The notes under the pieces were generated by a model that was not told the DNA's origin, searched no databases, and saw only the letters and a list, made by a program, of their open reading frames with translations. Made by a program: the position numbers and the translations under genes. Source: an uncultured archaeon (GTDB taxonomy: Archaea > Aenigmatarchaeota > Aenigmatarchaeia > CG10238-14). Taken from it: a DNA stretch of 29,747 nt. Where the stretch lies: positions 1-29,747 of the forward strand of contig CAYMPD010000005.1 in assembly GCA_964392445.1 (NCBI GenBank), given 5' to 3'. Position 1 is the stretch's first letter. Each line of letters opens with the position of its first letter. Positions 10,921-29,747 of the stretch are shown piece after piece.

Positions 10921-12345
10921 ATGAAAGTAGTAAGTTCAAAGGGACAATTAAATACCTTCAGCAAACAGTTGTTCATTGTAGCAGCTTCTATAGCTTTTAT
11001 TCTTCTCTTTATGTATATGCTTTCTTTTAAGCAAACCACTGTGAAAGAAAAGGAATCTTCCGACTTCAAAGAAAATTCCCTGAACCTGTTGCAAAAATTA
11101 ATAAACGATGAGAATTGTCTAGCATACCAATACAATCAAATATCCCATAAAACAGTTTTGGATAAGAATAAAATCGATATATTTAGTAAAGAATATCGAG
11201 AAGTAGAACCCGACTGTGCGAAGGCGTTAAATTTTGATTATAATGTGAAGATTGTTCAGCACGAGTACAGTTTCCATTTATATCCGGGAATTCCGATTAA
11301 GGAAAAAGTTAAGGGAGGGGTATTCAAAAAGATATTAAGATTGATTGACGGAAAAAGAATTGCTTTTATCTTGGACTCCTCTGGTAGCATGAGAGATTAT
11401 GGAGGGAAATGTGACTCCGATCCCAAATATCCTAATACAAAAATATGCTGTCTGAAGAAATTCATGTACAACTTCATAGATGAGATGAGTGATGAAAGCG
11501 TTATAACCGTGATACCTTATGGGACTACAAAAAATATATGTGATCCCCAGATTTTATTTCCCTTCACTAAGTTAGATAGTATTGAAACAAGAGAACAATT
11601 GAAGTTAAAAATTGAAACTATGTATCCCCAAAGCGGAACGCCTATGGGACCAGCTCTAGAAAATGGATTCATATATTCTCGGGATAACAATGGAGAAGTG
11701 ATAGTACTTTTGACAGATGGATGTGAAAATGTTTGCAACAGTGATACAAAATCCGTGGCTGAAAATTTTAAAGACTTGGGTATTGCCGTTCATACAATAG
11801 GATACGGAACAGCTATCTGCCCACCACCAATCAAGGAAACAGCAAAAGTTACCAATGGGACATACTCCGAGGTTGAATCTTGCGAAGAGCTCATATACCA
11901 ACCACCAGGAAACATTACCAATGTGAGCGTGTCTAGAGAGGAATGGATCTTCGGTTTAACTGATCTTTATAGCTCCTTCTCCCCTGAAAAATCTCGACAA
12001 GAAGAGTTGCAGATTTCTTTACCAGTAACGATAAGGTATAATGAGAGTTTTTCTGCGGAGGGAACTATCTTCATTTACTCTGTGAAGGGAGAATTAGAGG
12101 AATTATATAGTTTGCTTGAAGATACTTGTGAAAAAGCTCAGGAAGGCCAAGAAATAAAATTTTCTAAACAATTCCATTTTTCCTATCCAGTGAGATATTC
12201 GGGTGATGAAATTTGTATGATGGACTCCTGCAAAAAATTTGTCTGCCCCTATGATCTAGATTTTGAAAATATAGAAAATGAGGGCGATTATGTACTAGAA
12301 TTCTCCTTTGATAGTATGGATGAAAGAATAGTGGTGAGAAAGTAA
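10921..12345 (+). CDS. Pilin-like protein (class III leader SKG|QL) with inserted von Willebrand factor A domain
   Basis: KG-Q leader plus hydrophobic helix. vWA MIDAS elements FILDSSGSM, SGTPMG..L and VIVLLTDG. Flanks align with the 13638 gene. Confidence 0.85.
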   Translation: MKVVSSKGQLNTFSKQLFIVAASIAFILLFMYMLSFKQTTVKEKESSDFKENSLNLLQKLINDENCLAYQYNQISHKTVLDKNKIDIFSKEYREVEPDCAKALNFDYNVKIVQHEYSFHLYPGIPIKEKVKGGVFKKILRLIDGKRIAFILDSSGSMRDYGGKCDSDPKYPNTKICCLKKFMYNFIDEMSDESVITVIPYGTTKNICDPQILFPFTKLDSIETREQLKLKIETMYPQSGTPMGPALENGFIYSRDNNGEVIVLLTDGCENVCNSDTKSVAENFKDLGIAVHTIGYGTAICPPPIKETAKVTNGTYSEVESCEELIYQPPGNITNVSVSREEWIFGLTDLYSSFSPEKSRQEELQISLPVTIRYNESFSAEGTIFIYSVKGELEELYSLLEDTCEKAQEGQEIKFSKQFHFSYPVRYSGDEICMMDSCKKFVCPYDLDFENIENEGDYVLEFSFDSMDERIVVRK

Positions 12346-12420
12346 TATTGGATTCTAAAAAATTGAAACCCTTCAACAACTTCTATAACTTTATTACCCA
12401 AAAAATAAATATTATAACTT

Positions 12421-13629
12421 ATGAAAGGGCAATTGATTGCTTTCGTTTTCATTATTCTCGCTGTTGCTGGAGTTATAACTGGATATGTTTTTTACAATAT
12501 TTTTTACGGTAGCCAACACCAAACCCAGACTTTCAAAGTTCATACAATAGATGCTGTCAGAAATCTGATTGAAAGTTTTAAGAATTATCTTCATTTGTCT
12601 TTGACTTATTCTTCTAATCAAGCTTTAAGGGAGCATGCTCAATCTGGAGCTTTGATGCCCGCAGGTGACTGGATTTGTAATGGCCCCAATCCTGTGGAAG
12701 TAGAAGATTCTAGAGAATGTCTGGAAAAACATACTACTTATTATCTGAATGTTTATTCTGATCTATTTAACACATCATTACCTGTGAATTTTAACAAGGA
12801 CTACTTTTCTGGATGTGAATATGGGGTTGATGAAAGTGGTGTACTTGATGGAGAATATGATGAAGGTTATTTTTGGTCAAATTGCTCGGGAAGTAAAGTT
12901 TCTGTTTCTGATAAAAACATAAATGAGTACGAAGAAATAACTACGAACGATTATATAACCAAGAATAGATACTGGTATATGTTCAGAATATATGATGAAT
13001 GGGCTAGAGCTGATGTCTATTCTAAGTGTGTATGTGGGTGCTGTGTTGGTTGTGCTGGTTGTGACTGTACTTTAGATTGTGCGAGAAGAGCTTACGAAGA
13101 TCTGGTAAGTAGGTTTGATGATGATGTTATTTGTTATGAACCAGAGGATTGGGAATGTTGTGATCATGAATATGGTCCTATATCTTGTCAGCCTAGAAGT
13201 GAATGTTTAGACTGGGAAGATACAGATTGTAAATGTGCAGGTCATGATTGTACAGAACCTCCACCTCTAGAAACAGCTTCTTTTTCGAGTAATTCAAAAC
13301 TGGAGAATAATCTTTGGTATGTTATTAGAAAAAATGGAGAAGATACTTTATCAAATTCATCTATTTACTTGCAAAATCTAAACTGCAATTGTGATTACTG
13401 GGTGGAGAATAGACTAGCCGCTACCTATTTGTTTACATGTCAAGATCATAAATATTATGTACCTTCAGATGAAGGGCCGGTTCCCCTAACTTTCAATGCC
13501 CTTGCGACCGCTAAATGGAGATGTCCAGATACCTGCCATAATACAGCTACTTGTACCTGTCCTGGTGGGGCAGAAACTTGTGATGAATGTGAATGTCCGC
13601 CCTGCCCACAAAACCTATGTTATGGTTAA
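12421..13629 (+). CDS. Pilin-like protein (MKG|QL) with Cys-rich C-terminal half
   Basis: MKGQLIAFVFIILAVAGVITG. Cys clusters CVCGCCVGCAGCDCTLDC and a terminal 9-Cys segment. Confidence 0.78.
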   Translation: MKGQLIAFVFIILAVAGVITGYVFYNIFYGSQHQTQTFKVHTIDAVRNLIESFKNYLHLSLTYSSNQALREHAQSGALMPAGDWICNGPNPVEVEDSRECLEKHTTYYLNVYSDLFNTSLPVNFNKDYFSGCEYGVDESGVLDGEYDEGYFWSNCSGSKVSVSDKNINEYEEITTNDYITKNRYWYMFRIYDEWARADVYSKCVCGCCVGCAGCDCTLDCARRAYEDLVSRFDDDVICYEPEDWECCDHEYGPISCQPRSECLDWEDTDCKCAGHDCTEPPPLETASFSSNSKLENNLWYVIRKNGEDTLSNSSIYLQNLNCNCDYWVENRLAATYLFTCQDHKYYVPSDEGPVPLTFNALATAKWRCPDTCHNTATCTCPGGAETCDECECPPCPQNLCYG

Positions 13630-13637: not shown

Positions 13638-14855
13638 ATGAAAAATATGTATTCAAAAGCACAGACTAATTTTTTCACAAAATTAATTTTCATTGTAGCA
13701 GCTGCTGTAGCATTTTTTCTAGTTTTTATGTACTTTAATTCTTTCAGAAAAGAGACAATTGAAGAAAAGGAAAGTTCAGATTTCAAAATGGGAGCGATGA
13801 ATGTTTTACAAAAATTGATTACTGATGAGAGTTGTCTAGCATATGAATATAATCAAACCCAGCGTAAAATAATTATAGACAAAAATAAACTGGATGTGTT
13901 CTCATCAGAATTTGATGAAGTAGAGCCAAATTGTAGTAAAGCTTTAGGTTTTGATTATAATATACAAATAGGTCAATTTCCACATAATTTTTCTCTTTAT
14001 CCAGAGGAGATCATTATTAACACTGAACCAGAATATTCTACAGATTTTGCTCAACACCAATGTAAAGTCAACCAAAATGAGGTTTTATACATCAAAATGA
14101 ATTTTCTCCCTACTGAAGAGATATGCACGAGATACAGTGAATTGGATATAGTTACCGGTACTAGGACGCTAGGTCTTTGTCCTGATGAATGCTACCCAGA
14201 TCCACTAGTAAATTGTCCTTACCCAGATCATAAAATGTGTGGTATTCCTTATCATTGTCCCGCAGAAAAATGTGAATGCATAGAGAATCAATTAGGTGCT
14301 CATCCATGGATAGTTACTTGTGACGAGGTTGATTTAGAAACCGATTGTACTCCGGTTTCAGCTGCGCATACTTGGTGCGGTAAAGTCGTAAAAGAAATCG
14401 AAGTGCCATCAGGACCTGTGATAGATGTTGATATAATGTCTACTGTTTGGAATTTTGGGTTATCAACAGGTACTGGAGTGAATTCGTTCTCACCAGAAAA
14501 AGCAAGAATAGAAGAAGTTCAATTATCGATTCCTGTAACAATAAGATATAATGAAAGTTTTTCAACAGAAGGTATGATATTTATGTATGCTGTTAGAGGA
14601 GAACTTGAAAGTTTTTATAGTTTATTAGAGGATATCTGTGAAAAGACTGAAAATGAAATTGATGTTAGTTTTTCTAAAAATTTTCATTTCTCTTATCCTG
14701 TTAGTTATAGTGAACCCGATCTCTGTATGTTGGATTCCTGTAAAAAATTTGTTTGTTCCTACGATCTAGATTTTGAAAATATAGAAAGTGAGGGTGATTA
14801 CGTTTTGAAATTTTCGTTAGATCATTCAAATAAAGTAATTAGGGTGGAAAAATAA
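13638..14855 (+). CDS. Pilin-like protein (SKA|QT), paralogue of 10921 with a 12-Cys insert instead of vWA
   Basis: Start is more likely ATG 13638 or 13647 than 13593. N- and C-terminal blocks align with the 10921 gene (KESSDFK, CLAY.YNQ, VEP.C.KAL.FDYN, PVTIRYNESFS.EG, CKKFVC.YDLDFENIE.EGDYVL). Confidence 0.82.
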   Translation: MKNMYSKAQTNFFTKLIFIVAAAVAFFLVFMYFNSFRKETIEEKESSDFKMGAMNVLQKLITDESCLAYEYNQTQRKIIIDKNKLDVFSSEFDEVEPNCSKALGFDYNIQIGQFPHNFSLYPEEIIINTEPEYSTDFAQHQCKVNQNEVLYIKMNFLPTEEICTRYSELDIVTGTRTLGLCPDECYPDPLVNCPYPDHKMCGIPYHCPAEKCECIENQLGAHPWIVTCDEVDLETDCTPVSAAHTWCGKVVKEIEVPSGPVIDVDIMSTVWNFGLSTGTGVNSFSPEKARIEEVQLSIPVTIRYNESFSTEGMIFMYAVRGELESFYSLLEDICEKTENEIDVSFSKNFHFSYPVSYSEPDLCMLDSCKKFVCSYDLDFENIESEGDYVLKFSLDHSNKVIRVEK

Positions 14856-15643
14856 TGGGACGGAAATTTTTATTAATATTTATAATATTTTTTCTTATTT
14901 TATTATTAAGTTTAGTGTTTTTTTTATTAAAAAAAGACGGTACCGAAGTCTTAAAGCCATCCCTTAACAAAAGTTTATGTGATTTTATAATAAATGAGAA
15001 CTTGGGAAAGTCATGTCAAGCCTTGATTTCGAAGGAAGCTAATATCTGTGAAGATGTAGGTAAATACAATACGCTCTGTTTCGAATGGATTTTAGGGTCA
15101 ATAAAACTCTCGGAAGATTATTGTAATAGAATAAAGAATAACTACGGAAAAATTGTTTGTTTCAGAAATCTAGTCGTCCAAGAGAGAGATCTGGATCTAT
15201 GTATGGAAAATGATGACTGTTTCATTCAAAGATTAAAAATAGCATCTTTAACTTCAAATGAGGAAATATGTAATTTTTTCTCGGGGGACGACTTCTATAA
15301 AAATTTATGTCTTGCAGAAACTAGTAATAACAGGAATTATTGTAAAGAAATAAGTGATGATTTTATGAAAAAATCCTGTTTAAGTTATTTTCCTGAGGGT
15401 TTAACCGATTGTGAAGTGGAAAATACTAGGGAAAAATGCCTGTATGAATTGGCATTTCAGAAAAAAGATCCTAAAATTTGTGAATTGATAAAATCTCCTT
15501 CAGGGAGAATCGAATGTGTTCTAAATATTAAAAATGACTTGAATATCTGTATGGAAAAGACAAGTGATATGAAAGATATCTGTATTATTTATTATCTAAG
15601 AAATGAATTAAAAATAAAGTCTGGTAGATTTGATGAGATTTAA
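14855..15643 (+). CDS. Membrane-anchored protein of Cys-pair helical repeats
   Basis: N-terminal TM, then recurring C-x(~9-12)-C units (e.g. CLYELAFQKKDPKICELIKSPSGRIEC). Starts at a TAATG overlap. Confidence 0.7.
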   Translation: MGRKFLLIFIIFFLILLLSLVFFLLKKDGTEVLKPSLNKSLCDFIINENLGKSCQALISKEANICEDVGKYNTLCFEWILGSIKLSEDYCNRIKNNYGKIVCFRNLVVQERDLDLCMENDDCFIQRLKIASLTSNEEICNFFSGDDFYKNLCLAETSNNRNYCKEISDDFMKKSCLSYFPEGLTDCEVENTREKCLYELAFQKKDPKICELIKSPSGRIECVLNIKNDLNICMEKTSDMKDICIIYYLRNELKIKSGRFDEI

Positions 15644-16415
15644 ATACATTATTCTCTTAGTCGTGTTCATAATATCAATAGTATATCTTTCATTTAATAG
15701 TATGAAATCTGAAGTTCCCTCAAATAGTGGTCTATGTAATGATATATCATCAGATAGGCTTAAAATGGTATGCTATGCAATGCTATTGAAAAATTATAGT
15801 TACTGTAAATTATCTTTAGATTTTACTCCTTACTGTTATGATACTGTTTTCCCTCTACTGGATGTTAGTAGAGAAATGTGCAACAAACTTGAAGATGAAG
15901 ATGCTAGATTGTCATGTTACACTAATTTAGCTGTTAAAGAAAGAAATGCGACTATATGCGAATACCTAAAAGGACCAAATCTCGCTGATATTTGCTATAT
16001 TAGAATTTTCGATTATGTTGATCAAATAGATAATATTGAGCTTTGTCAAAATATACCCCATCAGAGTACAAAGTTTGCATGTATGGCCAGTATAACTGGA
16101 GAAATAGGGTATTGTGACAACATAACAATCGAGATATTTGAAAAGGGTTATTGTCTAGCAACTATAACCCATGATGTAAATGATTGTTTTACAGGACAAG
16201 AATTAGGTGGTGCATTGTCACGTGTAACTTTCTCTTCATGTATTAGAAATGTAGCGATAAATACCGGCAATATTACTATGTGTGAAATGGTAGGTATATT
16301 GGAAGATAAGTGGAAATGCAGAATGGCTCTATCTGACTCTCAAGATATCTGTGAAGACGTACCAAGTCCCTACGACGATCTATGCAAATTAGAATACATA
16401 AAAAATAATATTTAA
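15633..16415 (+). CDS. Membrane-anchored protein of Cys-pair helical repeats (same repeat type as preceding gene)
   Basis: N-terminal TM, then repeats such as CYTNLAVKERNATICEYLKGPNLADIC. Overlaps the upstream stop. Confidence 0.7.
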   Translation: MRFKYIILLVVFIISIVYLSFNSMKSEVPSNSGLCNDISSDRLKMVCYAMLLKNYSYCKLSLDFTPYCYDTVFPLLDVSREMCNKLEDEDARLSCYTNLAVKERNATICEYLKGPNLADICYIRIFDYVDQIDNIELCQNIPHQSTKFACMASITGEIGYCDNITIEIFEKGYCLATITHDVNDCFTGQELGGALSRVTFSSCIRNVAINTGNITMCEMVGILEDKWKCRMALSDSQDICEDVPSPYDDLCKLEYIKNNI

Positions 16416-16438: not shown

Positions 16439-18511
16439 ATGGTTGAAAATGATACTGATTTCACATCCCCTTCCGGCAGATATTTTAAAATGTTTATCGA
16501 AGATGAAATAATCAAATTTTCTTTTTACGAGAAATTATGTAAGTTCTCTTATAAGTTCCTAAAAGTCAAATGCCCAAATTTTCTAAGAAAAAAACTTCAT
16601 GAGCCTATCTTTCTTTCAGATATGAAAATCACACCAGACCATGTTTTCTCTCTTAGTATTACTTCATTTATTTTATCATTCTTTATTTTCTTCTGGTTAT
16701 CATTCATAGACTTTCCATCGACATTAGTCCTGCTTATTTTCCCGTTCTTTATAGTTTATAATGTATTCACCTATCCACAATTCCACTCTGAAGTAATAAG
16801 GATAAGAGCTGGTAACGAAATTATAAGTATAATTTTGTACATAGTAACCTATTTATCATTGAACCCAGTTTTTGAAAAAGCCATTGAATTTGCTGCTTCA
16901 AGATGTCACGGCCCACTCGGAAATGATTTGAAAAAGGTTATTTGGGATATAGAATCAGGTAAATATGACAATATTGAAAAAGCATTGGCGATATACACTA
17001 GGAAATGGACTTTATGGAATGAAGAGTTTGTTAATTCTCTGGCTTTATTAAGATTAATAGAAATTCAAGCTACATTAGACGACAGAAATGAGATACTTCG
17101 CACGGCTGTTGAAAGGACAATGAGGAATGCTACCAACAAAATGGAAGAATATGCTTTCAACCTTAAAATGCCCTCAATGATGGTTCTTTTATTTGGTATT
17201 ACAATGCCTTTAATCGGACTTATTATGTTTCCTATGATCAGTATCTTTCTTACCCATGCCGTTAACCCCCTTTACATAGGACTTGGTTACACAGTATTTT
17301 TGCCGTTCTTCTTATGGTGGTTTCTTTATAGACTGATATCGAAAAGACCGGCAACATATTCACATTCAGAAAAGATAGAAGAAGTCCAACCAAGAAAATA
17401 TATAGAAATCAAAAAACTGAACTTAAAGATACCCATAGTTCTAATTGCATTCTTCATAGGCTTCCTAATAACAATACCTGGAATAATTTATTACATAGAA
17501 TTGGCTTCAGATCACTATCTTATTTTCTCCAGATATTCAGGACAAAAGGCTATAAACGAATGGGGGAATTATTGTCTGAGTAAATACGAGCCTGCAGTTA
17601 TGGTAAGAGATACTTTCAAAGCTATGACACTTATATGGGGTATTGGCGCCTTTGTCTTTCTTTTAACCTATCTTAAAACTAAAGGACCTTATGAATTTGA
17701 CTTGTACATAAGAAAACTCGAAGAAGATTTCACTGAAGGGTTATTTGAACTCCAAACCGCATTAAAGCAGAATATACCACTTGAAATTGCCATCCTCAAA
17801 GTCTCAGAGCAATATAAAAGACTTAAAAGGGAAAAAACTCCAGTTGCCAAGTTTTTTGCTGAATTTTATCAAATGTTATTAAAAACTGGGAGACCTACCC
17901 AAACTGTATTGTTTGGGAAAAACGGGTTAATAACAAACCTACCTTCCTCTATGATCAAAAATATAATGAGGATTATTACTAGTGCTCTTTACAAAGGTTC
18001 TGTAATAGCTTCGAGAGTAACCAAAAATATAGTTACTTATTTGAGGAGACTAAGGGAAATAGAACATATAATTAAGAAAAGTATGGCCGAAATAATTTCT
18101 AATTTAACTATGGCTGGAGGATTTATATCACCAGTAATAGCAGGAATAGTGGCTTCTTCTTCTGTAGTTATGGTCCAACTTCTTCAAGCGGTTGCAAGGG
18201 TACTGAAAACTATTGAGGATATGTACAGCCTCGGGACTGATGTTGGTGGATCTATGAGTGATACCTTAGGATTAATCAATCTTCAAAGTGTGATGCCTCC
18301 AACACTTATGCAGCTAATCGGTGGAATATACCTAATCGAGATTGTGATCATAATAAGCATATTTGTGACTGGAATAGATAGGGGCTTCAATAAAGTCTAT
18401 CGTGATCATATGATATCAAATCTTATAATTAAATCAATGATATGGTTTACTTTGGTCTTCTTTATAATGGTTCTGTTATTCCAACCGATAGTAAATCTTA
18501 TCAATCCGTGA
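16439..18511 (+). CDS. Type IV pilus/Tad membrane platform protein (T2SS-F family, fused TadB/TadC, ArlJ-like), copy 1
   Basis: 690 aa with two cytoplasmic-domain plus TM-bundle halves (EKAIEFAASRCHGPLGNDLKKV, ELQTALKQNIPLEIAIL). Sits among class III pilin genes. Confidence 0.85.
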   Translation: MVENDTDFTSPSGRYFKMFIEDEIIKFSFYEKLCKFSYKFLKVKCPNFLRKKLHEPIFLSDMKITPDHVFSLSITSFILSFFIFFWLSFIDFPSTLVLLIFPFFIVYNVFTYPQFHSEVIRIRAGNEIISIILYIVTYLSLNPVFEKAIEFAASRCHGPLGNDLKKVIWDIESGKYDNIEKALAIYTRKWTLWNEEFVNSLALLRLIEIQATLDDRNEILRTAVERTMRNATNKMEEYAFNLKMPSMMVLLFGITMPLIGLIMFPMISIFLTHAVNPLYIGLGYTVFLPFFLWWFLYRLISKRPATYSHSEKIEEVQPRKYIEIKKLNLKIPIVLIAFFIGFLITIPGIIYYIELASDHYLIFSRYSGQKAINEWGNYCLSKYEPAVMVRDTFKAMTLIWGIGAFVFLLTYLKTKGPYEFDLYIRKLEEDFTEGLFELQTALKQNIPLEIAILKVSEQYKRLKREKTPVAKFFAEFYQMLLKTGRPTQTVLFGKNGLITNLPSSMIKNIMRIITSALYKGSVIASRVTKNIVTYLRRLREIEHIIKKSMAEIISNLTMAGGFISPVIAGIVASSSVVMVQLLQAVARVLKTIEDMYSLGTDVGGSMSDTLGLINLQSVMPPTLMQLIGGIYLIEIVIIISIFVTGIDRGFNKVYRDHMISNLIIKSMIWFTLVFFIMVLLFQPIVNLINP

Positions 18512-18520
18512 GTGATTTTA

Positions 18521-19442: not shown

Positions 19443-19852
19443 GCAAGGGTTTGGCTTTAGAAACGGTTGTAAAGTGGATTATATATATTGTTGTCGCCGG
19501 TGTTGTTATCAATTTGGTATTCTTTTTTTATGATGATGTAAAGAGATATATTGAGACCAGCGTATTTAAACGTGAAAAAGATGTGCAAACAGAAAAAATA
19601 GAACAAGATTCTTTTTCAGCTGTCGAGGTTAGAATTTTTGTGAGGGCTTGTTGGGATAAAACTGGAGAAAGATATGAAAAAGATGTTATATGTTATATTT
19701 TGAAAGGGGATGTTAGTGGTGTTGATGGAAGTGATTTAGTGGGTGCCGTAGATTCACCAGCTCAAGTTGATGTGACTGAATTCGATAATTCCGCAACAAG
19801 TACTATAATAAGATTTGAGGATATTAGTAACAAAATCATTGTTGAGAGTTAG
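19439..19852 (+). CDS. Pilin-like protein (SKG|LA), CW..CY scaffold
   Basis: MSKGLALETVVKWIIYIVVAGVVI. ACWDK...VICYIL. ATGA overlap with the previous gene. Confidence 0.8.
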   Translation: MSKGLALETVVKWIIYIVVAGVVINLVFFFYDDVKRYIETSVFKREKDVQTEKIEQDSFSAVEVRIFVRACWDKTGERYEKDVICYILKGDVSGVDGSDLVGAVDSPAQVDVTEFDNSATSTIIRFEDISNKIIVES

Positions 19853-22081: not shown

Positions 22082-23443
22082 ATGTCAGCATCAGAATTTT
22101 TAACTATAATTGGAGTTATCCTAGTCGGCTTACTCTTTTTTGCAATAGCCAGAAATTATATTTTTGGAGAGGGAGTAAAAACTAAAGAGTACGGATACAA
22201 AGCTGATGCCCAAGAAATAATAGCACTAATAGAAAAAGTTTCTGGAGAACCTAATGAATTTACTATGTATTGTCAAGATATATCTCTATGTGACATCGAA
22301 GTTAAAGGTGGGATTTTAACATATGAAAAAAATGATTTCAAATATTCTTATCCAATATCCAAAAATTTAGAAGAGGTAACAATGGAAGAAGTAACTAGAA
22401 TTTGTGTAATCAATCAGAATAAGAGTGTCACTTTGCATGGAGGGAGTGTTATTTGTATTCTTGATACTAGGTGTACTCCTGAGGAGTGTTTGGAAGATTG
22501 TTTGGACTGTTATGGTCCTGACGATGTTTGTGTGGGTGATGGTTATTGTAATCCGTATATTGGAGAAAATTGCAGAACTTCTCCTGATGATTGTCAATGT
22601 GATCCTGAAAAAATCTGTTGTCCGGAATCCTTCGATGCTGATGAGAATGGATGTTCTGAGACTGTGGATATTGTAAGAGGTAATGAATGTTGGTGTAATG
22701 AACAATGTGAGGGAAGTTTGGAATGTAATCCTACTACCGATGATTTCAGTGATTATGCTAATGCTTGTTGTGAATCTGGTAAAGGATGGGATGGTACCGA
22801 ATGTAAAGAATTGGACGTACTTGATTTTTTCATTATACCTGTTGGGATATCTGACCCAGGTAATTATAATAACATCGCAAATCAGTTTATAGATCATTTT
22901 GTAGCAACATCTCCATTTAGAGATTGTAGTGATATAAAAGATAGAATAAAATTTTGGATAATAGAACCATCTGACTGTCCATCATCTGCTCAGACATCAT
23001 ATTGTGATCACTGCTCAAGTTGTATTAATATAGGAAGATCATGTGCGAGAAGAATGGAATCTATTTATGGAGTAGCTTTTGATAAATTCGCTGTTTTAAC
23101 GGAAAGTGGAGGGTGGAATGGCGGATGCGCAGGTAATATTCCGAATGATGGCTCTTCATCTAGTCTAATCCCTTGTAGTTTATCAGGTAATTGTGTTCCT
23201 ACACACGAAACGGGACATACATTAGGATTAGGTCATGTAAATTGTGGGGTCGCTTGTCATGCTTGTTCTTATAATAATCCAAATTGTCCAGACTGTGATC
23301 ATCCAGATAGGGCTGAATTTATAATGGATTATTGTACACCAATGCGAAGATTCGGACCAGAAGGTTATAATTTCCTAAAAACACAATATATAGGTACATC
23401 TCCACATAATCAGGGTTTAGCAAGGTGGTTAGAAGGATGTTAA
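22082..23443 (+). CDS. Pilin-like protein without class III leader, with Cys-rich spacer and metzincin-type zinc metallopeptidase domain
   Basis: MSASEFLTIIGVILVGLLFFAIA, Cys-rich middle region, LDFFIIPVG...FVATSPFRD (M64-like strand/helix), THETGHTLGLGH (HExxHxxGxxH, 23204-23236), FIMDY Met-turn. Confidence 0.8.
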   Translation: MSASEFLTIIGVILVGLLFFAIARNYIFGEGVKTKEYGYKADAQEIIALIEKVSGEPNEFTMYCQDISLCDIEVKGGILTYEKNDFKYSYPISKNLEEVTMEEVTRICVINQNKSVTLHGGSVICILDTRCTPEECLEDCLDCYGPDDVCVGDGYCNPYIGENCRTSPDDCQCDPEKICCPESFDADENGCSETVDIVRGNECWCNEQCEGSLECNPTTDDFSDYANACCESGKGWDGTECKELDVLDFFIIPVGISDPGNYNNIANQFIDHFVATSPFRDCSDIKDRIKFWIIEPSDCPSSAQTSYCDHCSSCINIGRSCARRMESIYGVAFDKFAVLTESGGWNGGCAGNIPNDGSSSSLIPCSLSGNCVPTHETGHTLGLGHVNCGVACHACSYNNPNCPDCDHPDRAEFIMDYCTPMRRFGPEGYNFLKTQYIGTSPHNQGLARWLEGC

Positions 23444-24279
23444 AATTACGAAAATTATTGCTTATAGTTATTTTAGCTTTATTTATAATGAAAATAGGAT
23501 ACTCAAACCAAGAAATATTTTCTGTATTGTTTGATATATATAAAGACGACACTGTTGTACTTAAAGAAATAAAGTTAGTGGAATTAGAGGGAGTAAATTT
23601 TAATGAGGGAGAAGGAAAGTATTCCTTTATCCTATATTCCCAAGAGGAAGTATTATACGAAAATAAAAGATCTATAAAATTCCAAGTACATAGGGATATA
23701 ATCGATCCAGAAACAGGAGAAATGTACGAGGAAAACATAGAAATTAACCCTCAAGAAATATACATAAGATTGCCCTACTATAGAGATGCAGAAAGAATAG
23801 AACTTAAGCATTCAAATGATTTAATTTTCAGTTATGATATTTGTCAAATAAATGATAATTGTGATATCAGTAAAGGCGAAAATCCTTTTAATTGTCCTTC
23901 AGACTGTCAAAAACCAGTAGAATGCGGGAATGGAATTTGTGAAGAAGGTGAAACTCAAGGTAATTGCTGTCAAGACTGTGGATGCCCGGAAGATATGGAA
24001 TGTGAAGATGGAGAATGTGTTTATGATAAATGTGGTAATGATATATGTGAGCCAAGTTTTGACGAGAATTACAATACATGTCCTGAGGATTGTCCTTCAG
24101 GAAGTGAAGATGGTTATTGTGATGGTAAAGCAGATAATAAATGCGATCCAGATTGCGCGGAAGAAGAGGATATAGATTGCATAAAACCTAAAAATAGAAT
24201 ATTCATTTACGTCTTAATCGGAGTCATCTTTTTAGTTATCACTTTACTAATTGTAATTTTAAGCGGGAGAAGCTCATGA
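23437..24279 (+). CDS. Secreted Cys-repeat protein with C-terminal membrane anchor (partner 2, paralogue of 21267)
   Basis: ATG 23437 after AAGGTGG. Signal peptide, same beta-rich domain (GEGKYSF..Y....VLYE), CGNGICEEGETQGNCCQDC-type repeats, C-terminal TM. Confidence 0.75.
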   Translation: MLKLRKLLLIVILALFIMKIGYSNQEIFSVLFDIYKDDTVVLKEIKLVELEGVNFNEGEGKYSFILYSQEEVLYENKRSIKFQVHRDIIDPETGEMYEENIEINPQEIYIRLPYYRDAERIELKHSNDLIFSYDICQINDNCDISKGENPFNCPSDCQKPVECGNGICEEGETQGNCCQDCGCPEDMECEDGECVYDKCGNDICEPSFDENYNTCPEDCPSGSEDGYCDGKADNKCDPDCAEEEDIDCIKPKNRIFIYVLIGVIFLVITLLIVILSGRSS

Positions 24280-24758
24280 AAGGATTCGTAGAACAGATGA
24301 TTTATTTGATAGTAATAGTTTTAGCGCTCTTTATGCTAATTGTTTTCTTTACTTATCAAAGAGGTAGTAGAGGAGTTGAAACAAAAAAATCTGTTGAGGA
24401 AAGAGGATTAGATGAAGAAGGTACGAGTCTTGTCTTTACTCTATTCAACAACAAACTCCCTTATGTGGAAAAGGTTTATTTGCAAGTTATAATTGACGCT
24501 ATACTAGAAGGAGAATATAGAAAGGAAGAGAAGTACAAAGTTTTTTACGGAAAAGGAATAGGTGAGGTAAACCTCACAGAAATAATACCACCGTTGATGG
24601 ACAATTATGCTAAAGGAAGATGGGAATTAAAAATTACAACACCAGACGGCGACTATACCTACGGAGGAATAAACAAAGACAAAGTAATATACATCTACGA
24701 AGCTCTAATACCTGTTCCTGAAGAAAGAAGTGGTAAGATTACATTTTTCCTCGGTTAA
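24276..24758 (+). CDS. Small pilin-like protein (MKG|FV)
   Basis: MKGFVEQMIYLIVIVLALFMLIVFF. ATGA overlap with the previous gene. Confidence 0.72.
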   Translation: MKGFVEQMIYLIVIVLALFMLIVFFTYQRGSRGVETKKSVEERGLDEEGTSLVFTLFNNKLPYVEKVYLQVIIDAILEGEYRKEEKYKVFYGKGIGEVNLTEIIPPLMDNYAKGRWELKITTPDGDYTYGGINKDKVIYIYEALIPVPEERSGKITFFLG

Positions 24759-24811: not shown

Positions 24812-25705
24812 ATGATGAAAGGACAAGCGAGTTTGGAAATGGTAGTTGGTTTGATAATTCTCTTAGTTGTAGCAGGGGTTGTAATAGGACTAGTTATTCA
24901 TTTTATAAATCCTCGAAGAATGCCAAACCCAGAAGAAAAATTGAGTGTGAATGAATTCTTAACCAATTGTGAACAATATTGTAATGATATTAATTCTGTG
25001 GAATATTGTAGAGATTATTACTCTGGGATTGATTGGAATAAAAATGGTATAAAACATGAAATTTTGGAGCTGGGTAAATATAATTGGATGACATGTGAAG
25101 ATAGGGTTTATTGTTTCCTTGTTGAGCCATGTGAAGAGAGATTTGGAAGAGGCTTGGATGTAATGAAGAAATGTAAGAGAGTGTTGTGTCAAACCTATTT
25201 GGAAAAATATAGTGGAGATGCTGATATGGCAACCCAGGCATTGAAAGATGATATAAACTTTCCTATGGTATGTGATTTAAGTGAGATACCTAATGCAGAT
25301 AATTGGTATGAAATTGTGTTTGCGGAGGGATGTGGTGCAGAGGCCCCCCAACAATTTTCGATTAACAGCCTTTCAAACTGTATTATAGATAATAACGATC
25401 CAAGTAACCCTACATTTACCTGTGACGTTGAATATACTGGGGATTTGTCAGATACAAAATATATAATTGTAGTACCTGATGAGCAAGGACATCCTGTAAT
25501 GGCTAATGAAACAATAGGAAGTGTTAGATTTGTCGGTGATACCCTGGAAGGAGATTTGAATTATGTGCCAGACCTCTTAGATTGGAATGAGAACTTCGTT
25601 GAAGGTGATCTAGTAAATGGTTTATGTGCATTTGCTTTTGTTTGGGGAGCAGGAGATGGTGAAAGTATTGAAACCGAAGAATGTGAGATCGTAAATACAC
25701 CTTAA
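24812..25705 (+). CDS. Pilin-like protein with canonical KG|QASLE motif, Cys-rich domain and acidic C-terminal domain
   Basis: MMKGQASLEMVVGLIILLVVAGVVIG (Q+1, E+5). CEQYC..., DWNKNG loop, acidic beta-rich tail. Confidence 0.82.
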   Translation: MMKGQASLEMVVGLIILLVVAGVVIGLVIHFINPRRMPNPEEKLSVNEFLTNCEQYCNDINSVEYCRDYYSGIDWNKNGIKHEILELGKYNWMTCEDRVYCFLVEPCEERFGRGLDVMKKCKRVLCQTYLEKYSGDADMATQALKDDINFPMVCDLSEIPNADNWYEIVFAEGCGAEAPQQFSINSLSNCIIDNNDPSNPTFTCDVEYTGDLSDTKYIIVVPDEQGHPVMANETIGSVRFVGDTLEGDLNYVPDLLDWNENFVEGDLVNGLCAFAFVWGAGDGESIETEECEIVNTP

Positions 25706-25761: not shown

Positions 25762-27885
25762 ATGTCAATATTAGAGAAAATACTCGGAAATAAAGAAAAT
25801 TATAACCAACAGGAAATAGAAAGACGAGCTAGAGAATATTCACCTAAAGCTCCTGAGAAGCCCAAAAGATCCTTCTTTGAAAAAGCATGTAAATTCGCTG
25901 GGAAAACACTAAATATAAAAGCACCAGAAGGGATCCGAGAAAAACTAAATAAATCCATTTTAATGCTGGATCTTGATATTACTCCAGACAGTGTAGTTTC
26001 ATTGACTGTACTAACTTTTGTTGTTTCAATTATAACAATTATACCTCTATTTTTCCTAGTAAAAGGGTTCAATATATTCCTACCATTTTTACCTTTAATC
26101 GGGACTTATTTTATTTACACATATCCTAGTTATCTGGCAACAGTTACCAAGATTAGAGCGTCTGATGAGACTGTTAAAGTGATACTTTACATGGTCATTT
26201 ATCTTAGATTCAATCCACAGTTAGAGGGAGCTATGAGCTTTGCTGCTGAGCATTGTCATGGCCCGATAGGGAAGGATTTGAAAGAACTTGTATGGGGTAT
26301 GGAAGGTGGACAATATCTAAACCTGAAAGAAGCACTAAGTACCAAAATGGAGAAATGGTTGATTTGGGATAAAGAATTTGTTGAATCGATGAATTTACTT
26401 TTATCAATGACAAGAATAGGATCGGGGGATGTGAGAAATAAGACTTTGAACAAAGCTCTATCTTATATCCTTACCTCGACTTACGAAAAGATGAAAGAAT
26501 ATAGCCGAAATTTAAGATCCCCGATAACATTGATACATAGTATGGGTATAACTTTTCCTTTGATGGGTTTGGTAATGTTTCCAATGATATCGATTTTTCT
26601 ACATGATCAACTCAATCCTTTTTACCTTGGAATCGGTTATATTGTGATATTGCCTTCAATTTTGTATTTTTATTTGAAAAGAACTATTTCTAAAAGACCT
26701 GGTGCCTTTTCTTCACCGGATATATCTGACCACCCTGACCTGCCTCCAAAAGGAAAATTCGAACTAAATCTCCCCAATAAAAAAATCCTTATTCCTGTTC
26801 TTTTTGTTTCAATACTAGTTGTCATTTATAGTTCTATTCCAGGTATTATTCACTTCATAAATTTAGGTTCAAGTTATTTTGGTTTCAAAAAGAATCCTAT
26901 GACTTTTACAGAGAATTGGAGAAATTATCTTAGTGCCCAGTATAAACCGGATAATTTATTTAGGTTAACTTTTTATTGTTTGAGTATAGTTTGGGGGATT
27001 GGGTTTGGAATTGTGGTTTATACTTTAGGTTCAAGTGTTCAGCGCCTTAAAATAAGAGACCAAATTAAAGAGATAGAAGACGAATTTCAGGTTGCATTAT
27101 TCAACCTAGCAGATGTTTTATCCTCGGGTATACCAGTAGAAACTGCTTTAGAAGAGGTTTCAAAGAAGTACAAACAATCCAAGATGACTAGTTCTCCTAT
27201 GTATTCTTTCTTTGTTGATATGTTGAGAAACATGAAAAACATGGGGATGACTTTTGAAAGGGCTGTATTTGATAGAAAATATGGTGCTATTGTAAGGTTC
27301 CCTTCAAAGTTAGTTCAGGACATAATGAAAATAATTGTTTCAGCGTCAAGGAAATCTTCATTGATACTTTCTGTAGCGACAAGATCAATATCTGACTTTC
27401 TTTCTAAAACTAAAAACATCGAATCTATGTTAAAACAAATGCTAGAGGAGATATCATCCGCCCTTAAACTTCAAGCTCAATTCATCGCTCCTTTCATCTG
27501 CGCTATTGTTGCAACTATGGCTACATTTATAATTGAATTACTACAAATGATAGCTGAGTTTTTGGTTTCTATTGAGGAAACTTTTAATATGGGTGGAACT
27601 TTCATACATAGCGGAACAACTCAATTTTCCCAGAGTCTTAGTATGGTGAATCTTGAAAAGGTGATGCCGCCAACTATATTTCAACTGATAATAGGTATAT
27701 ACATGATAGAGATTGTGGTTATACTTTCTTACTTTTTGAATGGGATAAGAAATGGTTTTGATGAAACTACAAGAAATGTGATGATTGGTAAAACACTTGT
27801 AACTTCGTTGATACTTTACTCAGTTATACTTTTGATATCATTATTCTTAACTAAGAGTATGACTCCAGTGTTCGGAGGACTGTAA
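25762..27885 (+). CDS. Type IV pilus/Tad membrane platform protein (T2SS-F family, fused TadB/TadC, ArlJ-like), copy 2
   Basis: 707 aa. Aligns end to end with the 16439 gene (FAAEHCHGPIGKDLK, GLVMFPMISIFL...LNPFYLGIGY, ISKRP, VMPPT.FQLIIGIYMIEIV). Confidence 0.85.
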   Translation: MSILEKILGNKENYNQQEIERRAREYSPKAPEKPKRSFFEKACKFAGKTLNIKAPEGIREKLNKSILMLDLDITPDSVVSLTVLTFVVSIITIIPLFFLVKGFNIFLPFLPLIGTYFIYTYPSYLATVTKIRASDETVKVILYMVIYLRFNPQLEGAMSFAAEHCHGPIGKDLKELVWGMEGGQYLNLKEALSTKMEKWLIWDKEFVESMNLLLSMTRIGSGDVRNKTLNKALSYILTSTYEKMKEYSRNLRSPITLIHSMGITFPLMGLVMFPMISIFLHDQLNPFYLGIGYIVILPSILYFYLKRTISKRPGAFSSPDISDHPDLPPKGKFELNLPNKKILIPVLFVSILVVIYSSIPGIIHFINLGSSYFGFKKNPMTFTENWRNYLSAQYKPDNLFRLTFYCLSIVWGIGFGIVVYTLGSSVQRLKIRDQIKEIEDEFQVALFNLADVLSSGIPVETALEEVSKKYKQSKMTSSPMYSFFVDMLRNMKNMGMTFERAVFDRKYGAIVRFPSKLVQDIMKIIVSASRKSSLILSVATRSISDFLSKTKNIESMLKQMLEEISSALKLQAQFIAPFICAIVATMATFIIELLQMIAEFLVSIEETFNMGGTFIHSGTTQFSQSLSMVNLEKVMPPTIFQLIIGIYMIEIVVILSYFLNGIRNGFDETTRNVMIGKTLVTSLILYSVILLISLFLTKSMTPVFGGL

Positions 27886-27888
27886 TAA

Positions 27889-29747
27889 ATGAAAGGAATG
27901 ACATTGGAAACGATGGGATTTGTACTCATTGCTTTATTTGGAGTTTTCGTATTGATCGTCTTTATCACTGGTTCTTTAGGTGAGTTAGGTAGAAACGTGA
28001 TTTGTTATTTTTATCAAAATGTTCTTTCACAAGATTTGGATATGTGTGAGACAAGAATAACTGCTTCCGTTAAGAAAACAATTAGACCAGAAGATTCAGA
28101 GGATTTGGCTAGAGAAATAGCTGCTCATTCTATTATTTGTTGGGAAGAGTCCGTGAAATCATTAAAAACCAAAGATACTTATTGTTACAATTTGATGATA
28201 GAAGGTGGGCCGTTCAGCCCTGGTGCAGATGAAATAGATGTGACTGATATTCTTTTAGAAGAAGGAGGATGTAATAGATTGGAAAATTATTATATTGACA
28301 GTAATTGTGGGAATGAAGACCAATTAAGATGGGAAGTTGGTGGCCCTGGTTTCTTTCCTTGGGAGAATAGGGGTATTGATGCTGGGTGGTTGGATCCTTG
28401 TGGTACAGTTAATATTACCAATGGTAGATGGATGTGGTCATGGGATGGAAACAGTTGGTCTGATCCTGTTGATCTCTCTACTATTGAACCTTGGAAATCG
28501 ATTCCTATATCTGGAGTTGGTTATAGGCCTTGGGAGAATGGTGGGATAGATGCTGGGTGGTTGAGTAGTGATGGGATAATAGGAATAACAAATGGTAAAT
28601 GGGCGTGGAACTGGGATGGGAGTAATTGGAATGGTCCGTTTGATCTTTATGAAAGTGAATACTGGGGGGATGAGTATCATGCAGAACATGGGATGGAACC
28701 TTGTCCTGAGGGACATTATCCTTGGGAGGGAAAGGGTATTGATTCTGGTTGGACTGACCCCAATGGTATCACAAATATTACTAATGGTAGATGGATGTGG
28801 AGTTGGGACGGAGATACTTGGTCTGATCCTATTGACATGTCTGAGACTCCTCCATGGGATTCTATCCCTATATCTGGAGTTGGTTATCTTCCATGGGAAA
28901 ATGGTGGAATAGATGCTGGGTGGTTGAGTAGTGATGGTAAGGTTGGGGTAACAAACGGTAAATGGGCATGGAATTGGGATGGGAGTTCTTGGAGTGATGT
29001 AGTTGATTTGGAGACAGTCTGGAGTACTGTTAAAAAATCTGATAATTGTCTTTACAGCAGTGAATGTAGTATAACAGATCAAAAATTAGTTCTGATTAAG
29101 TATGATGATGTCAACAAACAAATAGTTGTGAAAGCAGGTGAAGGTCAAGTTACTACTAGTACTGTTGGACCTGGGGTAACAACCACAACAGTAAGTGGTA
29201 CTACTACAACAACTGGATTAGGTTCTGGCTGTATTTTTGGTTCACCATGTACTTCAGGTTGGCCTGGTCATGAAGGGGGGATAAGGGAATTTAATGAAGA
29301 TGTGTATGCATGTGATGTCTTTGAGGTATGTGACCCTGACTTACAATTTATTGCAGACGAGGCTATTGATTGTTGTGAAAATGGTTGTTCATCATCTTGT
29401 CATGGCTATTGCTCCCAAGCAAGAAAAGATTCAGGTATATGTAATGATATGGGGGTATGTGAACCTAATCCTAGTTCAATGAAGGTCAAAAAATGTTCTG
29501 CGTTTTATCTTGCATTGGGTTTAGGCCAAGCCGCAGATATTATGAATGGCTACTATCAGGAAGAGATTGATTGTGCAAATCCTGATATTACTGTTACTGA
29601 TTGTGGATTTCCAGGACTTCAATGTAAGGGCTGCCTTGATGTTAGTTATAATCCCCCTTCTAGTGACGATCCTGAAATTTTATGTGGTTGGTCATCTGAC
29701 CCCAACGCCGATACTGATATGAGTAAAAATAGTTGTTATATGTCAGA
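27889..29747 (+). CDS. Large pilin-like protein (MKG|MT): CW..CY scaffold with four-repeat hemopexin-like insert, Thr linker and Cys-rich C-terminal domain (truncated by window edge)
   Basis: Hand translation, open from ATG 27889 to the window end (619 full codons): MKGMTLETMGFVLIALFGVFVLIVFITG...AHSIICWEES...YCYNL...EEGGCNRLEN...CGNEDQLRWEV-[insert]-ITDQKLVLIKYD...VTTSTVGPGVTTTTVSGTTTTT...CCENGC... Not in the ORF track. Confidence 0.88.
   Translation, partial: MKGMTLETMGFVLIALFGVFVLIVFITGSLGELGRNVICYFYQNVLSQDLDMCETRITASVKKTIRPEDSEDLAREIAAHSIICWEESVKSLKTKDTYCYNLMIEGGPFSPGADEIDVTDILLEEGGCNRLENYYIDSNCGNEDQLRWEVGGPGFFPWENRGIDAGWLDPCGTVNITNGRWMWSWDGNSWSDPVDLSTIEPWKSIPISGVGYRPWENGGIDAGWLSSDGIIGITNGKWAWNWDGSNWNGPFDLYESEYWGDEYHAEHGMEPCPEGHYPWEGKGIDSGWTDPNGITNITNGRWMWSWDGDTWSDPIDMSETPPWDSIPISGVGYLPWENGGIDAGWLSSDGKVGVTNGKWAWNWDGSSWSDVVDLETVWSTVKKSDNCLYSSECSITDQKLVLIKYDDVNKQIVVKAGEGQVTTSTVGPGVTTTTVSGTTTTTGLGSGCIFGSPCTSGWPGHEGGIREFNEDVYACDVFEVCDPDLQFIADEAIDCCENGCSSSCHGYCSQARKDSGICNDMGVCEPNPSSMKVKKCSAFYLALGLGQAADIMNGYYQEEIDCANPDITVTDCGFPGLQCKGCLDVSYNPPSSDDPEILCGWSSDPNADTDMSKNSCYMS
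28357..29010 (+). repeat. Four Trp-rich hemopexin-like repeats arranged AB-AB (363-bp duplication unit)
   Basis: PWENRGIDAGW..ITNGRWMWSWDG, PWENGGIDAGW..ITNGKWAWNWDG, PWEGKGIDSGW..ITNGRWMWSWDG, PWENGGIDAGW..VTNGKWAWNWDG. Units begin at 28357 and 28720 and are similar at the DNA level. Confidence 0.85.

Follow-up and report, generated by a model that had tools for sequence, protein, structure and literature searches.

Results

The window analysed here, 29,747 nucleotides at the start of contig CAYMPD010000005.1 (assembly GCA_964392445.1), belongs to a tiny symbiont-type archaeon (DPANN, Aenigmarchaeota) with a large pilus-like gene cluster. Between positions 10921 and 29747 we have identified 17 tightly packed genes, all on the + strand and separated by -44 to +75 nt, in agreement with the at least 19 kb of co-oriented, often overlapping genes reported in a preliminary description of this DNA. 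About ten pilin-like families are encoded in the window, and the cluster continues beyond its end, over a 100-N assembly gap, with pilin-like genes up to about position 36746 of the contig. In this locus, nine genes have N-termini of class III (prepilin) type, two are pilin-like but leaderless, and two encode paralogous platform proteins that are FlaJ/TadC-like. The effectors of the locus comprise a vWA domain, a propeller of hemopexin fold, two domains that are zinc-peptidase-like and one that is GH43-like, and a putative transglutaminase-like domain. Genes are named below by their first position, related genomes by G numbers and contigs of the same genome by C numbers.

All nine leaders quoted in the preliminary description were found as written, each with a predicted transmembrane (TM) helix behind it: SKG/Q (10921), MKG/Q (12421), SKA/Q (13638), MKG/L (18897), SKG/L (19439), MKG/V (19859), MKG/F (24276), MKG/Q (24812) and MKG/M (27889), where the slash marks the class III site. 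The two pilin-like genes described as leaderless, 18512 and 22082, do have a hydrophobic helix right at the N-terminus. The motif is enriched in the locus, being present in 9 of its 17 genes against 76 of the 2114 ORFs in the genome (p = 1.2e-9, hypergeometric). Family A leaders (10921 and 13638) are unusual in that the KG/KA site is separated from the helix by 8-9 polar residues, a Lys among them, and no curated pilin family of Pfam or NCBIfam matches any subunit of the locus.

The first gene (10921..12345, 474 aa) encodes a family A pilin-like scaffold into which a vWA domain is inserted. This proposed cargo was recovered over cut-off (PF00092, E 2e-11, aa 147-322), and its MIDAS is intact, with DSSGS at aa 152 and, by inspection, the downstream Thr (SGTPMG) and Asp (LLTDG). 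In gene 13638 (13638..14855, 405 aa) a Cys-rich insert replaces the vWA domain on the same scaffold; by BLAST, the N-terminal (1-122) and C-terminal (328-474) parts of gene 10921 are 59-61% identical to those of gene 13638, while the middles differ. Gene 10921 has a full-length orthologue in G039 (36% identity) and gene 13638 has one in G013 (44% identity), and the family A cargo is swapped in G034, with a propeller where the vWA domain stands here. Between these two genes lies a class III-type Cys-rich protein (12421..13629, 402 aa, 32 Cys) with no Pfam match and with orthologues in G013 (52%), G034, G039 and G017. Two family B paralogues follow (14855..16415; 262 and 261 aa), each with an N-terminal TM helix, 18 Cys and no KG site; family B is single copy in G013.

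The two platform paralogues (16439..18511, 690 aa, and 25762..27885, 707 aa) are 37% identical to each other and have about 9 predicted TM segments each. Their earlier assignment as T2SS-F platform proteins holds with T2SSF matches that are weak (E 2e-5; 24.9 and 25.1 bits vs the 25.2 cut-off), as are those to the second halves; the scores are borderline, and architecture and context are in agreement. Platform-family homologues were found in 40 of 41 genomes of the order. Gene 25762 is the copy conserved across the order, with 68-75% identity in same-genus genomes, and orthologues of gene 16439 (62% identical) were found only in G013 and G028. No secretion ATPase is encoded within the window or on its contig, nor is there a prepilin peptidase gene on the contig; in relatives as well, the latter lies elsewhere. 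A T2SSE/FlaI-like ATPase of 762 aa is encoded on C13, adjoining a third platform paralogue, and three A24 prepilin peptidases (PF01478, over cut-off) are encoded on C21, C16 and C26. The locus is thus incomplete on its own, as its FlaI/TadA-like ATPase and A24 peptidases reside on other contigs. In five relatives (G039, G019, G021, G012 and G008) an orthologue of the ATPase heads the same super-locus, in which the two types of platform and the same families of pilin also lie; there the ATPase is divergent, with 744-767 aa (1249-1278 aa in two genomes). The synteny survey recovered an association with platform genes and the ATPase that is conserved across an order. Scanned with the FlaI model of the archaellum, the C13 ATPase scored 131.6 bits against a cut-off of 550 bits, and profile searches found no archaellin match among the locus proteins.

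Directly behind the first platform gene lies a small leaderless pilin-like gene (18512..18916, 134 aa, TM at aa 10-28), and its orthologues stand behind the platform gene in G013 (52%) and G028 (40%) too. It is followed by a bare family C pilin-like scaffold (18897..19442, 181 aa), which is homologous to genes 27889, 35647 and 33539 and has a 293-aa orthologue in G013, and by a small family D pilin-like protein (19439..19852, 137 aa), homologous to genes 33085 and 24812. The succession of family C and family D genes is conserved in relatives. Further downstream, a small class III-type protein (24276..24758, 160 aa) represents a scaffold that carries a beta-propeller in relatives (G039, 554 aa). 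The next gene (24812..25705, 297 aa, MKG/QASLE) encodes a class III-type pilin-like protein with Glu at +5; it has paralogues on C1 and C17, is kept in the locus in relatives and may represent the major subunit.

Gene 19859 (19859..21307) combines a carrier that we named module E (aa 1-167), a Thr-rich linker (aa 190-203) and a zinc-metallopeptidase-like cargo (aa 212-482). Module E begins with a class III signal, MKG/VSSWFWIAAGVVAGLVVF, and the K/R-G/A/S site is present in 89 of 144 module E homologues, with about 40 of the 144 being leaderless and starting at the helix. A pilin helix and head were looked for with AlphaFold2 (AF2; 72 sequences), which predicts a long N-terminal helix (2-55) and a head of six strands and two short helices (pLDDT above 90 for helix and head, 79-98 over aa 1-170). 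Foldseek against the PDB returned nothing below E 0.1 that would relate this head to solved pilins, and the best VIA-align match was PAS-like (Z 5.8); as pilin heads are very variable, the structural search neither supports nor excludes pilin membership. An exhaustive search found 160 representative clusters matching gene 19859, nearly all on aa 1-167 only, and module E is thereby seen to be a family widespread among Aenigmarchaeota. Where a class III site is recognisable (89 homologues), 43 are bare (200 aa or shorter) and 38 are fused (>300 aa). Across metagenomes the fusion partners of module E come from at least 12 Pfam families of enzymes or adhesion domains, among them Peptidase_M28 (8 cases), C25 (5), C1 (2) and GH5 (2), as well as pectate lyase, M64, M15_4, GH43, transglutaminase, PKD and CARDB. 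Module E of gene 19859 is loaded here and bare in its G013 orthologue (172 aa). In other comparisons of orthologous positions, a papain C1 domain stands in G017 against a metallopeptidase here, and G234 has an M28 domain. Bare copies of the same carrier modules are conserved beside loaded ones.

The two proposed zinc-peptidase domains both carry the motif, HExxH being found as HETGHNFNLCEGY in gene 19859 and as HETGHTLGLGH in gene 22082. An alignment of 12 sequences of the 19859-type cargo shows H, E and H without variation, and conservation of at least 90% for the Glu of LCEGY. A Reprolysin_5 match to this cargo is weak; the zincin cargo gave no PDB sequence match and only weak Reprolysin/M10 profile matches below cut-offs, and the peptidase domain did not fold in AF2 (pLDDT about 35). 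M64 is put forward as a lead only for its family, with a protein-language-model feature score of 0.91 and an hhalign probability of 13%. Gene 22082 (22082..23443, 453 aa) encodes a leaderless carrier (MSASEF...), a Cys-rich spacer and a metzincin-like cargo, with weak Reprolysin/M10/M66 matches around the motif, and has a full-length orthologue in G034 (42%). Its carrier bears the 19859-type peptidase in P0001, P0003, P0007 and P0008, and this peptidase module was found on three different carriers.

Two members of a further family, family F, lie within this part of the locus. The first (21264..22040, 258 aa) consists of a signal/TM helix, a beta-rich part, Cys-rich repeats and a C-terminal TM anchor; it is paralogous to genes 23425 and 30071 and has a weak M64_N match (E 0.0023). 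The second (23425..24279, 284 aa) was assigned by paralogy and TM prediction. Family F directly follows a large pilin-like gene in 8 of 9 examined cases, and in the ninth, in G234, it lies beside such a gene on the opposite strand.

The last gene of the window (27889..29747) crosses the 100-N gap and ends at contig position 30087. It encodes a family C scaffold with a four-bladed hemopexin-fold insert (aa 157-395), a Thr-rich linker and a Cys-rich C-terminal domain, the last being common to P0133, where the carrier is module E. The hemopexin-like cargo proposed for the locus was borne out in this gene by structure only. In the AF2 model (mean pLDDT 69, blades about 70-83) the predicted insert resembles the hemopexin domains of MMPs and vitronectin in Foldseek (E about 1e-8), and the top 11 VIA-align chains (Z 14.7-18.9, rmsd 2.6-3.1 over 161-194 residues) are all of hemopexin fold, ten titled hemopexin and one plant albumin, with the next fold dropping to Z 7.7. 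The Pfam Hemopexin repeat found no match in gene 27889 even at E <= 10, and the insert is classed here by its predicted hemopexin-like fold, outside the Pfam family. A 58%-identical orthologue in G003 is without the insert.

Discussion

Several families of this locus are modular pilins. Their carrier joins a class III signal, or a leaderless counterpart of it, to a helix some 50 residues long and a small beta head, and the effector is placed either behind a Thr-rich linker or within a loop of the head. The added functional module outside pilus biology that defines modular pilins sensu Raynaud et al. 2021 was found on module E and in families A and C. Across relatives, the same carriers acquire, lose and swap effector modules. 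The coexistence of bare and loaded paralogues, the module E fusions and the different cargo at orthologous positions support the earlier suggestion of reusable carriers with interchangeable cargo, and the type IV filament-like nature of the locus is also supported. The fusion of pilus-subunit carrier modules with swappable adhesion and protein- or sugar-cutting domains probably places these tools on the cell surface.

We consider it likely, with some reservation, that the locus provides subunits and platforms for a lineage-specific type IV filament (T4F) system in Aenigmarchaeota (DPANN). In such a system, subunits would first be inserted by Sec, and PibD-like A24 peptidases encoded elsewhere would then cut after K-G/A. 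The FlaI/TadA-like ATPase of C13 and the platform proteins would pull these subunits out of the membrane to form a pilus or a short stalk on the surface, keeping adhesins and hydrolases outside the cell envelope, where the displayed cargo could bind and cut proteins or glycans of a partner cell or environmental polymers. Loaded subunits may sit in the filament, and a host cell surface could be the target; yet the GH5 cellulase, pectate lyase, GH43 and M28 aminopeptidase found elsewhere on the same carrier mean that scavenging of environmental polymers fits equally well. With many subunits bearing bulky cargo, packing into the body of a filament is difficult, and the cargo would have to sit at the tip or on short stalks.

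The many subunits with large cargo, and no clear major pilin in the locus, would also suit an arrangement in which the pilin module only provides class III export and a membrane or stalk anchor, leaving monomers or short oligomers at the surface with the help of platform and ATPase and no extended pilus. [quoted passage not shown] Nonetheless, the carriers retain more than a signal and a helix, namely an entire, conserved pilin-like domain of 167 aa, bare module copies are conserved next to loaded ones, and about ten conserved pilin-like families with two to three platform paralogues exceed the needs of a simple anchor, so we regard bindosome-like anchoring as rather unlikely. T4F machineries include secretion systems as well (PMC4471445). 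A short T2SS-like pseudopilus of small subunits could export hydrolases that are freed by cleavage in Thr/Pro-rich linkers, and indeed Thr-rich linkers lie between carrier and cargo in 19859, 27889, P0011 and P0133, with cargo typical of secreted exoenzymes. This route appears quite improbable, given that the substrates of known T2SS are not fused to pseudopilins, that loop-inserted cargo (vWA in family A, the hemopexin fold in family C) is not releasable by one cut and that no dedicated processing protease is evident.

Perhaps the neighbourhood is coincidental, and these genes encode ordinary N-terminally TM-anchored surface proteins that are independent of T4F machinery, with K-G/A not being a processing site. 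This would be in line with the lack of matching curated pilin models, with the polar spacer behind the motif in family A and the missing motif in family B, and with a structural search that found no pilins. It is at odds, though, with the strong motif enrichment (p = 1.2e-9), the K/R-G/A/S site conserved in homologues, the synteny with platform genes and ATPase kept across an order and the pilin-like architecture predicted by AF2, and we give it very little credence. 

The statement in the preliminary description that no characterised system has such an architecture is too strong, as bacterial modular pilins and archaeal functionalized T4F have already been described. Among the modular pilins of bacteria, which bear vWA, lectin and further modules (Raynaud et al. 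2021, PMC8179133), are PilB (vWA module) and PilC (lectin module) of Streptococcus sanguinis, and such architectures are also common in ultrasmall CPR bacteria. They share with the present system a small pilin module with a grafted functional module, vWA among the modules and many shuffled architectures. In contrast, the present system is archaeal (K/R-G/A leaders, FlaJ-like platform), its carriers are unrelated in sequence, its cargo consists mostly of hydrolases (M28, C25, C1, M64-like, GH5, GH43, pectate lyase) and may lie in a head loop, many loaded subunit families occur per locus, some carriers are leaderless, and a membrane-anchored family F gene follows loaded genes.

Among the archaea, substrate-binding proteins that have a class III signal peptide are known to "functionalize" T4F machineries (Sivabalasarma and Albers 2026, PMC13705601). 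In the Sulfolobales bindosome (Bas), non-filament proteins likewise function at the surface by means of a class III signal together with an ATPase and a platform of T4F type. However, the cargo there consists of ABC-transporter binding proteins and here of enzymes and adhesins, and the present carrier includes a conserved pilin-like head and is encoded in a cluster with platform genes. Bas membership was rejected at 49.9 bits for the C13 ATPase against the 1000-bit BasE cut-off, and Pfam searches of the locus and the module E fusions found no substrate-binding-protein domains among the cargo. Similarly, PilY1/PilC tip adhesins and TadG of bacterial T4P and Tad pili present vWA and beta-propeller domains by a pilus with a minor pilin set. 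PilY1 is not a pilin, whereas here both domains are inserted into pilin-like scaffolds, and the propeller differs from that of PilY1 in being a four-blade hemopexin fold. The same genome also has ATPase loci on C1 and C10, with two short T2SSF genes each, which match the Epd-like "system 1" pili reported for DPANN (PMC13705601); the present system differs from these in that its platform proteins are fused (650-707 aa) and its ATPase has 762 aa. Moreover, a census found DPANN T4F genes to be mostly scattered and unassignable (PMC13705601), a current picture that the large ordered cluster contradicts.

Our analysis carries the idea of modular pilins over from bacteria into archaea, with enzymes as cargo. 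Public records list every one of these proteins as "hypothetical", and the carrier families could thus become annotation models. To our knowledge, no molecular tool has been established for the attachment of DPANN to other cells or for uptake from them; the conserved ATPase/platform super-locus and the armed pilin-like carriers provide named, testable candidates for this interaction. The cargo differs even between congeneric genomes, a pattern expected of molecules at an interaction interface. As a more tentative proposal, which we hold to be possible rather than likely, Aenigmarchaeota and probably other DPANN may use a dedicated T4F machinery as a general, rapidly re-armable exoenzyme display platform, on which about ten carrier families, some leaderless and therefore prepilin-peptidase-independent, swap protease, glycosidase and adhesin cassettes, and a membrane-anchored family F partner guards or docks each loaded subunit. 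If this is true, these symbionts would have in the system their organelle for contact and feeding, based on a pilus and functionally analogous to a cellulosome or a T2SS.

Genomic setting of the pilin-like cluster

The source genome (1.2 Mb in 54 contigs, 34% G+C, 95% complete) is that of a DPANN archaeon, as its close relatives are recorded as Candidatus Aenigmarchaeota or Aenigmatarchaeota MAGs. Contig C5 comprises 50,663 bases, the first 29,747 of which make up the window. Upstream of the cluster lie PCNA and FtsZ genes, and the stretch 2702-6059 holds a MacB-like ABC exporter pair (FtsX/MacB_PCD plus an ABC ATPase); next come a protein containing a CARDB domain and another, of 128 aa, with a "phage metallopeptidase" domain (PF18894, E 2.5e-24). 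On the minus strand, at 7542-10852, an operon resembling an iron(III)-type ABC importer (binding protein, 516-aa permease, ATPase) borders the cluster on its left; thus, the cluster begins at 10921. From there to the window end, 17 genes are all encoded on the plus strand with intergenic distances of -44 to +75 nt, and the co-oriented cluster with nine class III starts in the preliminary description stands. A 100-N assembly gap at 29748-29847 directly follows the window, and the cluster extends past it: gene 27889 (genes are named by their start on C5) continues to 30087, and another seven genes extend the cluster to about 36746, class III-type starts being present in five. A mobile element or virus was ruled out by the uniform composition and the conservation of the cluster across an order.

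Pilin-like N-termini and carrier families

All nine N-termini quoted as class III leaders read exactly as claimed: each has K-G or K-A and, after it, a TM helix. The same rule was positive in 76 of 2114 ORFs genome-wide, so its frequency in the cluster (9/17) far exceeds chance (p = 1.2e-9). The two genes described as leaderless were likewise confirmed, both beginning directly at the helix on the plus strand (18512-18600 and 22082-22120). Such starts are frequent: about 40 of 144 homologues of module E, the 167-residue N-terminal carrier of gene 19859, begin with M-x-x-x-W-L-Y at the helix and have no K-G/A leader (P0048, P0050, P0051 and P0056 among them). Mature bacterial pilins carry a Glu at about position 5, and the 22082 family keeps M-x-x-x-E-F, with Glu at approximately position 5. 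Judging from these N-termini, leaderless subunits would need no prepilin peptidase.

In all-against-all BLAST the subunits fell into families, each with a common carrier but with members of different size. The family A members 10921 and 13638 are about 60% identical at their ends, enclose a vWA domain in 10921 and a Cys-rich middle in 13638, and have an atypical polar spacer between site and helix. In family B (14855, 15630) the TM helix is present and the K-G/A site absent. Family C includes 18897 (181 aa), 27889 (at least 619 aa), 33539 (502 aa) and 35647 (190 aa); family D includes 19439, 33085 and 24812; family E includes 19859 (482 aa), 31251 (597 aa) and 36213 (177 aa). None of the small subunits matched a pilin family in Pfam or NCBIfam.

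In the AlphaFold2 model (72 sequences), residues 1-170 of 19859 have pLDDT values that mostly exceed 90; an N-terminal helix of 54 residues leads into six strands and two short helices. The predicted fold follows the pilin "lollipop" plan, and the helix and beta head expected of a pilin were found in the model. Structure searches with it returned no solved pilin (Foldseek E >0.1; VIA-align Z ≤5.8), the VIA-align matches being PAS/SH2-like; since pilin heads vary greatly, this speaks neither for nor against a likeness to known ones.

Family F (21264, 23425 and 30071) is of a different layout: a signal/TM helix, a beta-rich part, Cys repeats of the CGNGICE type and a C-terminal TM anchor. Its members lie at 21264-22040 and 23425-24279, both on the plus strand, and at C5 30071-31249 (L049:224-1402), with TM helices at both ends. 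In eight of nine cases (here and in the relatives G003, G008, G017, G034 and G039) a large pilin-like gene immediately precedes the family F gene; in the ninth, G234, the two are neighbours on opposite strands. Gene 21264 weakly matches an M64 N-terminal domain (E 0.0023), and the gene upstream of it looks M64-like. Family F proteins could act as partners, inhibitors or docking proteins.

Cargo domains

The vWA cargo is firmly identified (E 2e-11), and its MIDAS motif is present. As for the two proposed zinc metallopeptidase domains, HExxH is conserved in both, while metzincin matches stayed below threshold. Protein-language-model features and the motif HExGHxFxLxEGY of the 19859 peptidase point to M64, a lead only; hhalign against an M64 member gave a probability of 13%. 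Searches of PDB sequences with the peptidase cargo, as single sequences and as a 12-sequence profile, returned nothing useful, and the peptidase half of 19859 did not fold in AlphaFold2.

The proposed hemopexin-like cargo is borne out at the fold level by the model of 27889. Its residues 1-420 (mean pLDDT 69) are predicted to contain four repeats, each starting PWENGGIDAGW and containing NGKWAWNWDG, which form a four-blade propeller. The 11 best PDB matches are all of hemopexin fold (Z 14.7-18.9), ten titled hemopexin or hemopexin-like domains and one a plant albumin, and the next fold scores Z 7.7. The Pfam hemopexin profile does not match 27889, hence the similarity is one of fold; an ESM Atlas feature search with this gene gave no usable match.

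Gene 27889 spans the assembly gap (relevant stretches 29149-29747 and C5 29848-30087). The Cys-rich domain at its C-terminus shares 45-51% identity with the corresponding domain of protein P0133, where it is borne by module E; neither P0133 nor this domain had a Pfam match. The post-gap sequence has GHAWN...MDTT, which hints at a transglutaminase-like Cys-His-Asp core (cysteine protease type). By this motif the domain is tentatively transglutaminase-like, and the region of the presumed catalytic Cys falls within the gap.

Cargo also occurs on other pilin-like genes of this genome, namely Peptidase_M15_4 on C12 (31141-33153, 670 aa), vWA on C10 (12520-15156, 878 aa) and a GH43/GH32-like domain in gene 31251 (C5 31251-33044), which makes modular pilins a genome-wide habit.

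Exchange of cargo among genomes

An exhaustive phmmer search with 19859 yielded 160 representative clusters, nearly all matching residues 1-167 only. Of 301 genomes sampled from the phylum, 55 have module E, frequently as one bare and one loaded copy; all 55 fall in the same class. A class III site is recognisable in 89 homologues, of which 43 are at most 200 aa long and 38 exceed 300 aa (maximum 1111 aa). Pfam analysis of 65 long members detected Peptidase_M28 (8), C25 (5), C1 (2) and GH5 (2), as well as pectate lyase, M64, M15_4, GH43, GH32N, transglutaminase, PKD, CARDB and beta-helix domains. Conversely, the 19859 peptidase module was found on two other carriers, the leaderless 22082 type and a KG|FATE type.

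Cargo also differs between orthologous positions. Genes 12421-22082 recur in synteny in G013, but there module E carries no cargo (172 aa) and the family C protein is longer; G017 has a papain C1 domain where the source genome has a metallopeptidase; G234 combines module E with M28; and in G034 family A carries a propeller, in 10921 a vWA domain. A congener's orthologue of 27889, 58% identical, lacks the hemopexin-type insert. Block 10921-24758, with platform 16439, has syntenic counterparts (about 50-62% identity; 62% for the platform) only in G013 and G028, which belong to other genera or families, and three same-genus genomes lack it. It is thus an accessory second set that arose by duplication or transfer.

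Assembly machinery

The two proposed assembly platforms, 16439 and 25762, were recovered as 37% identical FlaJ/TadC-like proteins with about nine TM segments and weak T2SSF matches in both halves. Of the 41 genomes of the order, 40 have members of this platform family. C5 itself encodes neither an ATPase nor a prepilin peptidase; three A24 peptidases are encoded on other contigs, and a 762-aa FlaI/TadA-like ATPase on C13 has a third platform paralogue and a pilin-like gene of 626 aa as neighbours. In five relatives (G039, G019, G021, G012, G008) the orthologue of this ATPase heads a single super-locus containing the C13-type platform, a pilin-like gene block, the C5-type platform and the subunit families of the C5 cluster. 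The type IV filament (T4F) system is therefore complete within the source genome, split by assembly or rearrangement. In two of these relatives the ATPase is enlarged to 1249-1278 aa, against 744-767 aa elsewhere (G019:C1, ~125.8-129.6 kb, L032:5788-9606; G008:C1, ~51.6 kb); no more than about 487 residues align, at 60% identity, and the extra length may reflect an intein or large insertion.

The genome also has two Epd-like loci, on C1 and C10, both comprising an ATPase gene and a pair of short T2SSF genes. This type was reported for DPANN in a recent census, in which DPANN T4F genes were scattered and mostly unassignable (PMC13705601). The C5 system differs from it, having fused platforms of 650-707 aa instead of short gene pairs. 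An archaellum, considered as an alternative, found no support in subunit matches among the locus proteins.

Proposed function

The best-supported reading is that these genes encode subunits of a T4F machine in which adhesins and hydrolases are displayed at the cell exterior by carrier pilins. How the families are related, the predicted carrier fold, the exchange of cargo and the linkage to ATPase and platform are shown here and underlie this reading. The prepilin leaders would be cut after K-G/A, the ATPase and platform would extract the subunits, and loaded subunits would be placed in a filament or stalk. A bindosome-like anchoring that forms no long filament is rather unlikely, T2SS-like release of the cargo is improbable, and we give very little credence to plain TM-anchored proteins. 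The preliminary interpretation accordingly holds for a T4F-like locus with exchangeable cargo, while a position in the filament and a host target are still what we infer.

The principle has been described for bacterial modular pilins (PMC8179133) and for archaeal functionalized T4F with class III signal-peptide binding proteins (PMC13705601), and the C5 locus matches both. In the literature searched, we found no description of archaeal pilin-hydrolase fusions or of the Aenigmarchaeota super-locus; an Aenigmarchaeota genomics paper names only FlaG/FlaI/FlaJ homologues. The locus stands out by the wide range of cargo on a single carrier family, by loop insertions, leaderless carriers and additional platform paralogues, and by family F genes placed directly downstream of large pilin-like genes (8/9). 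The target of a T4F machine displaying such cargo would possibly be a host envelope; scavenging of environmental polymers would fit equally well the GH5, pectate lyase, GH43 and aminopeptidase cargo that the same carrier bears elsewhere.
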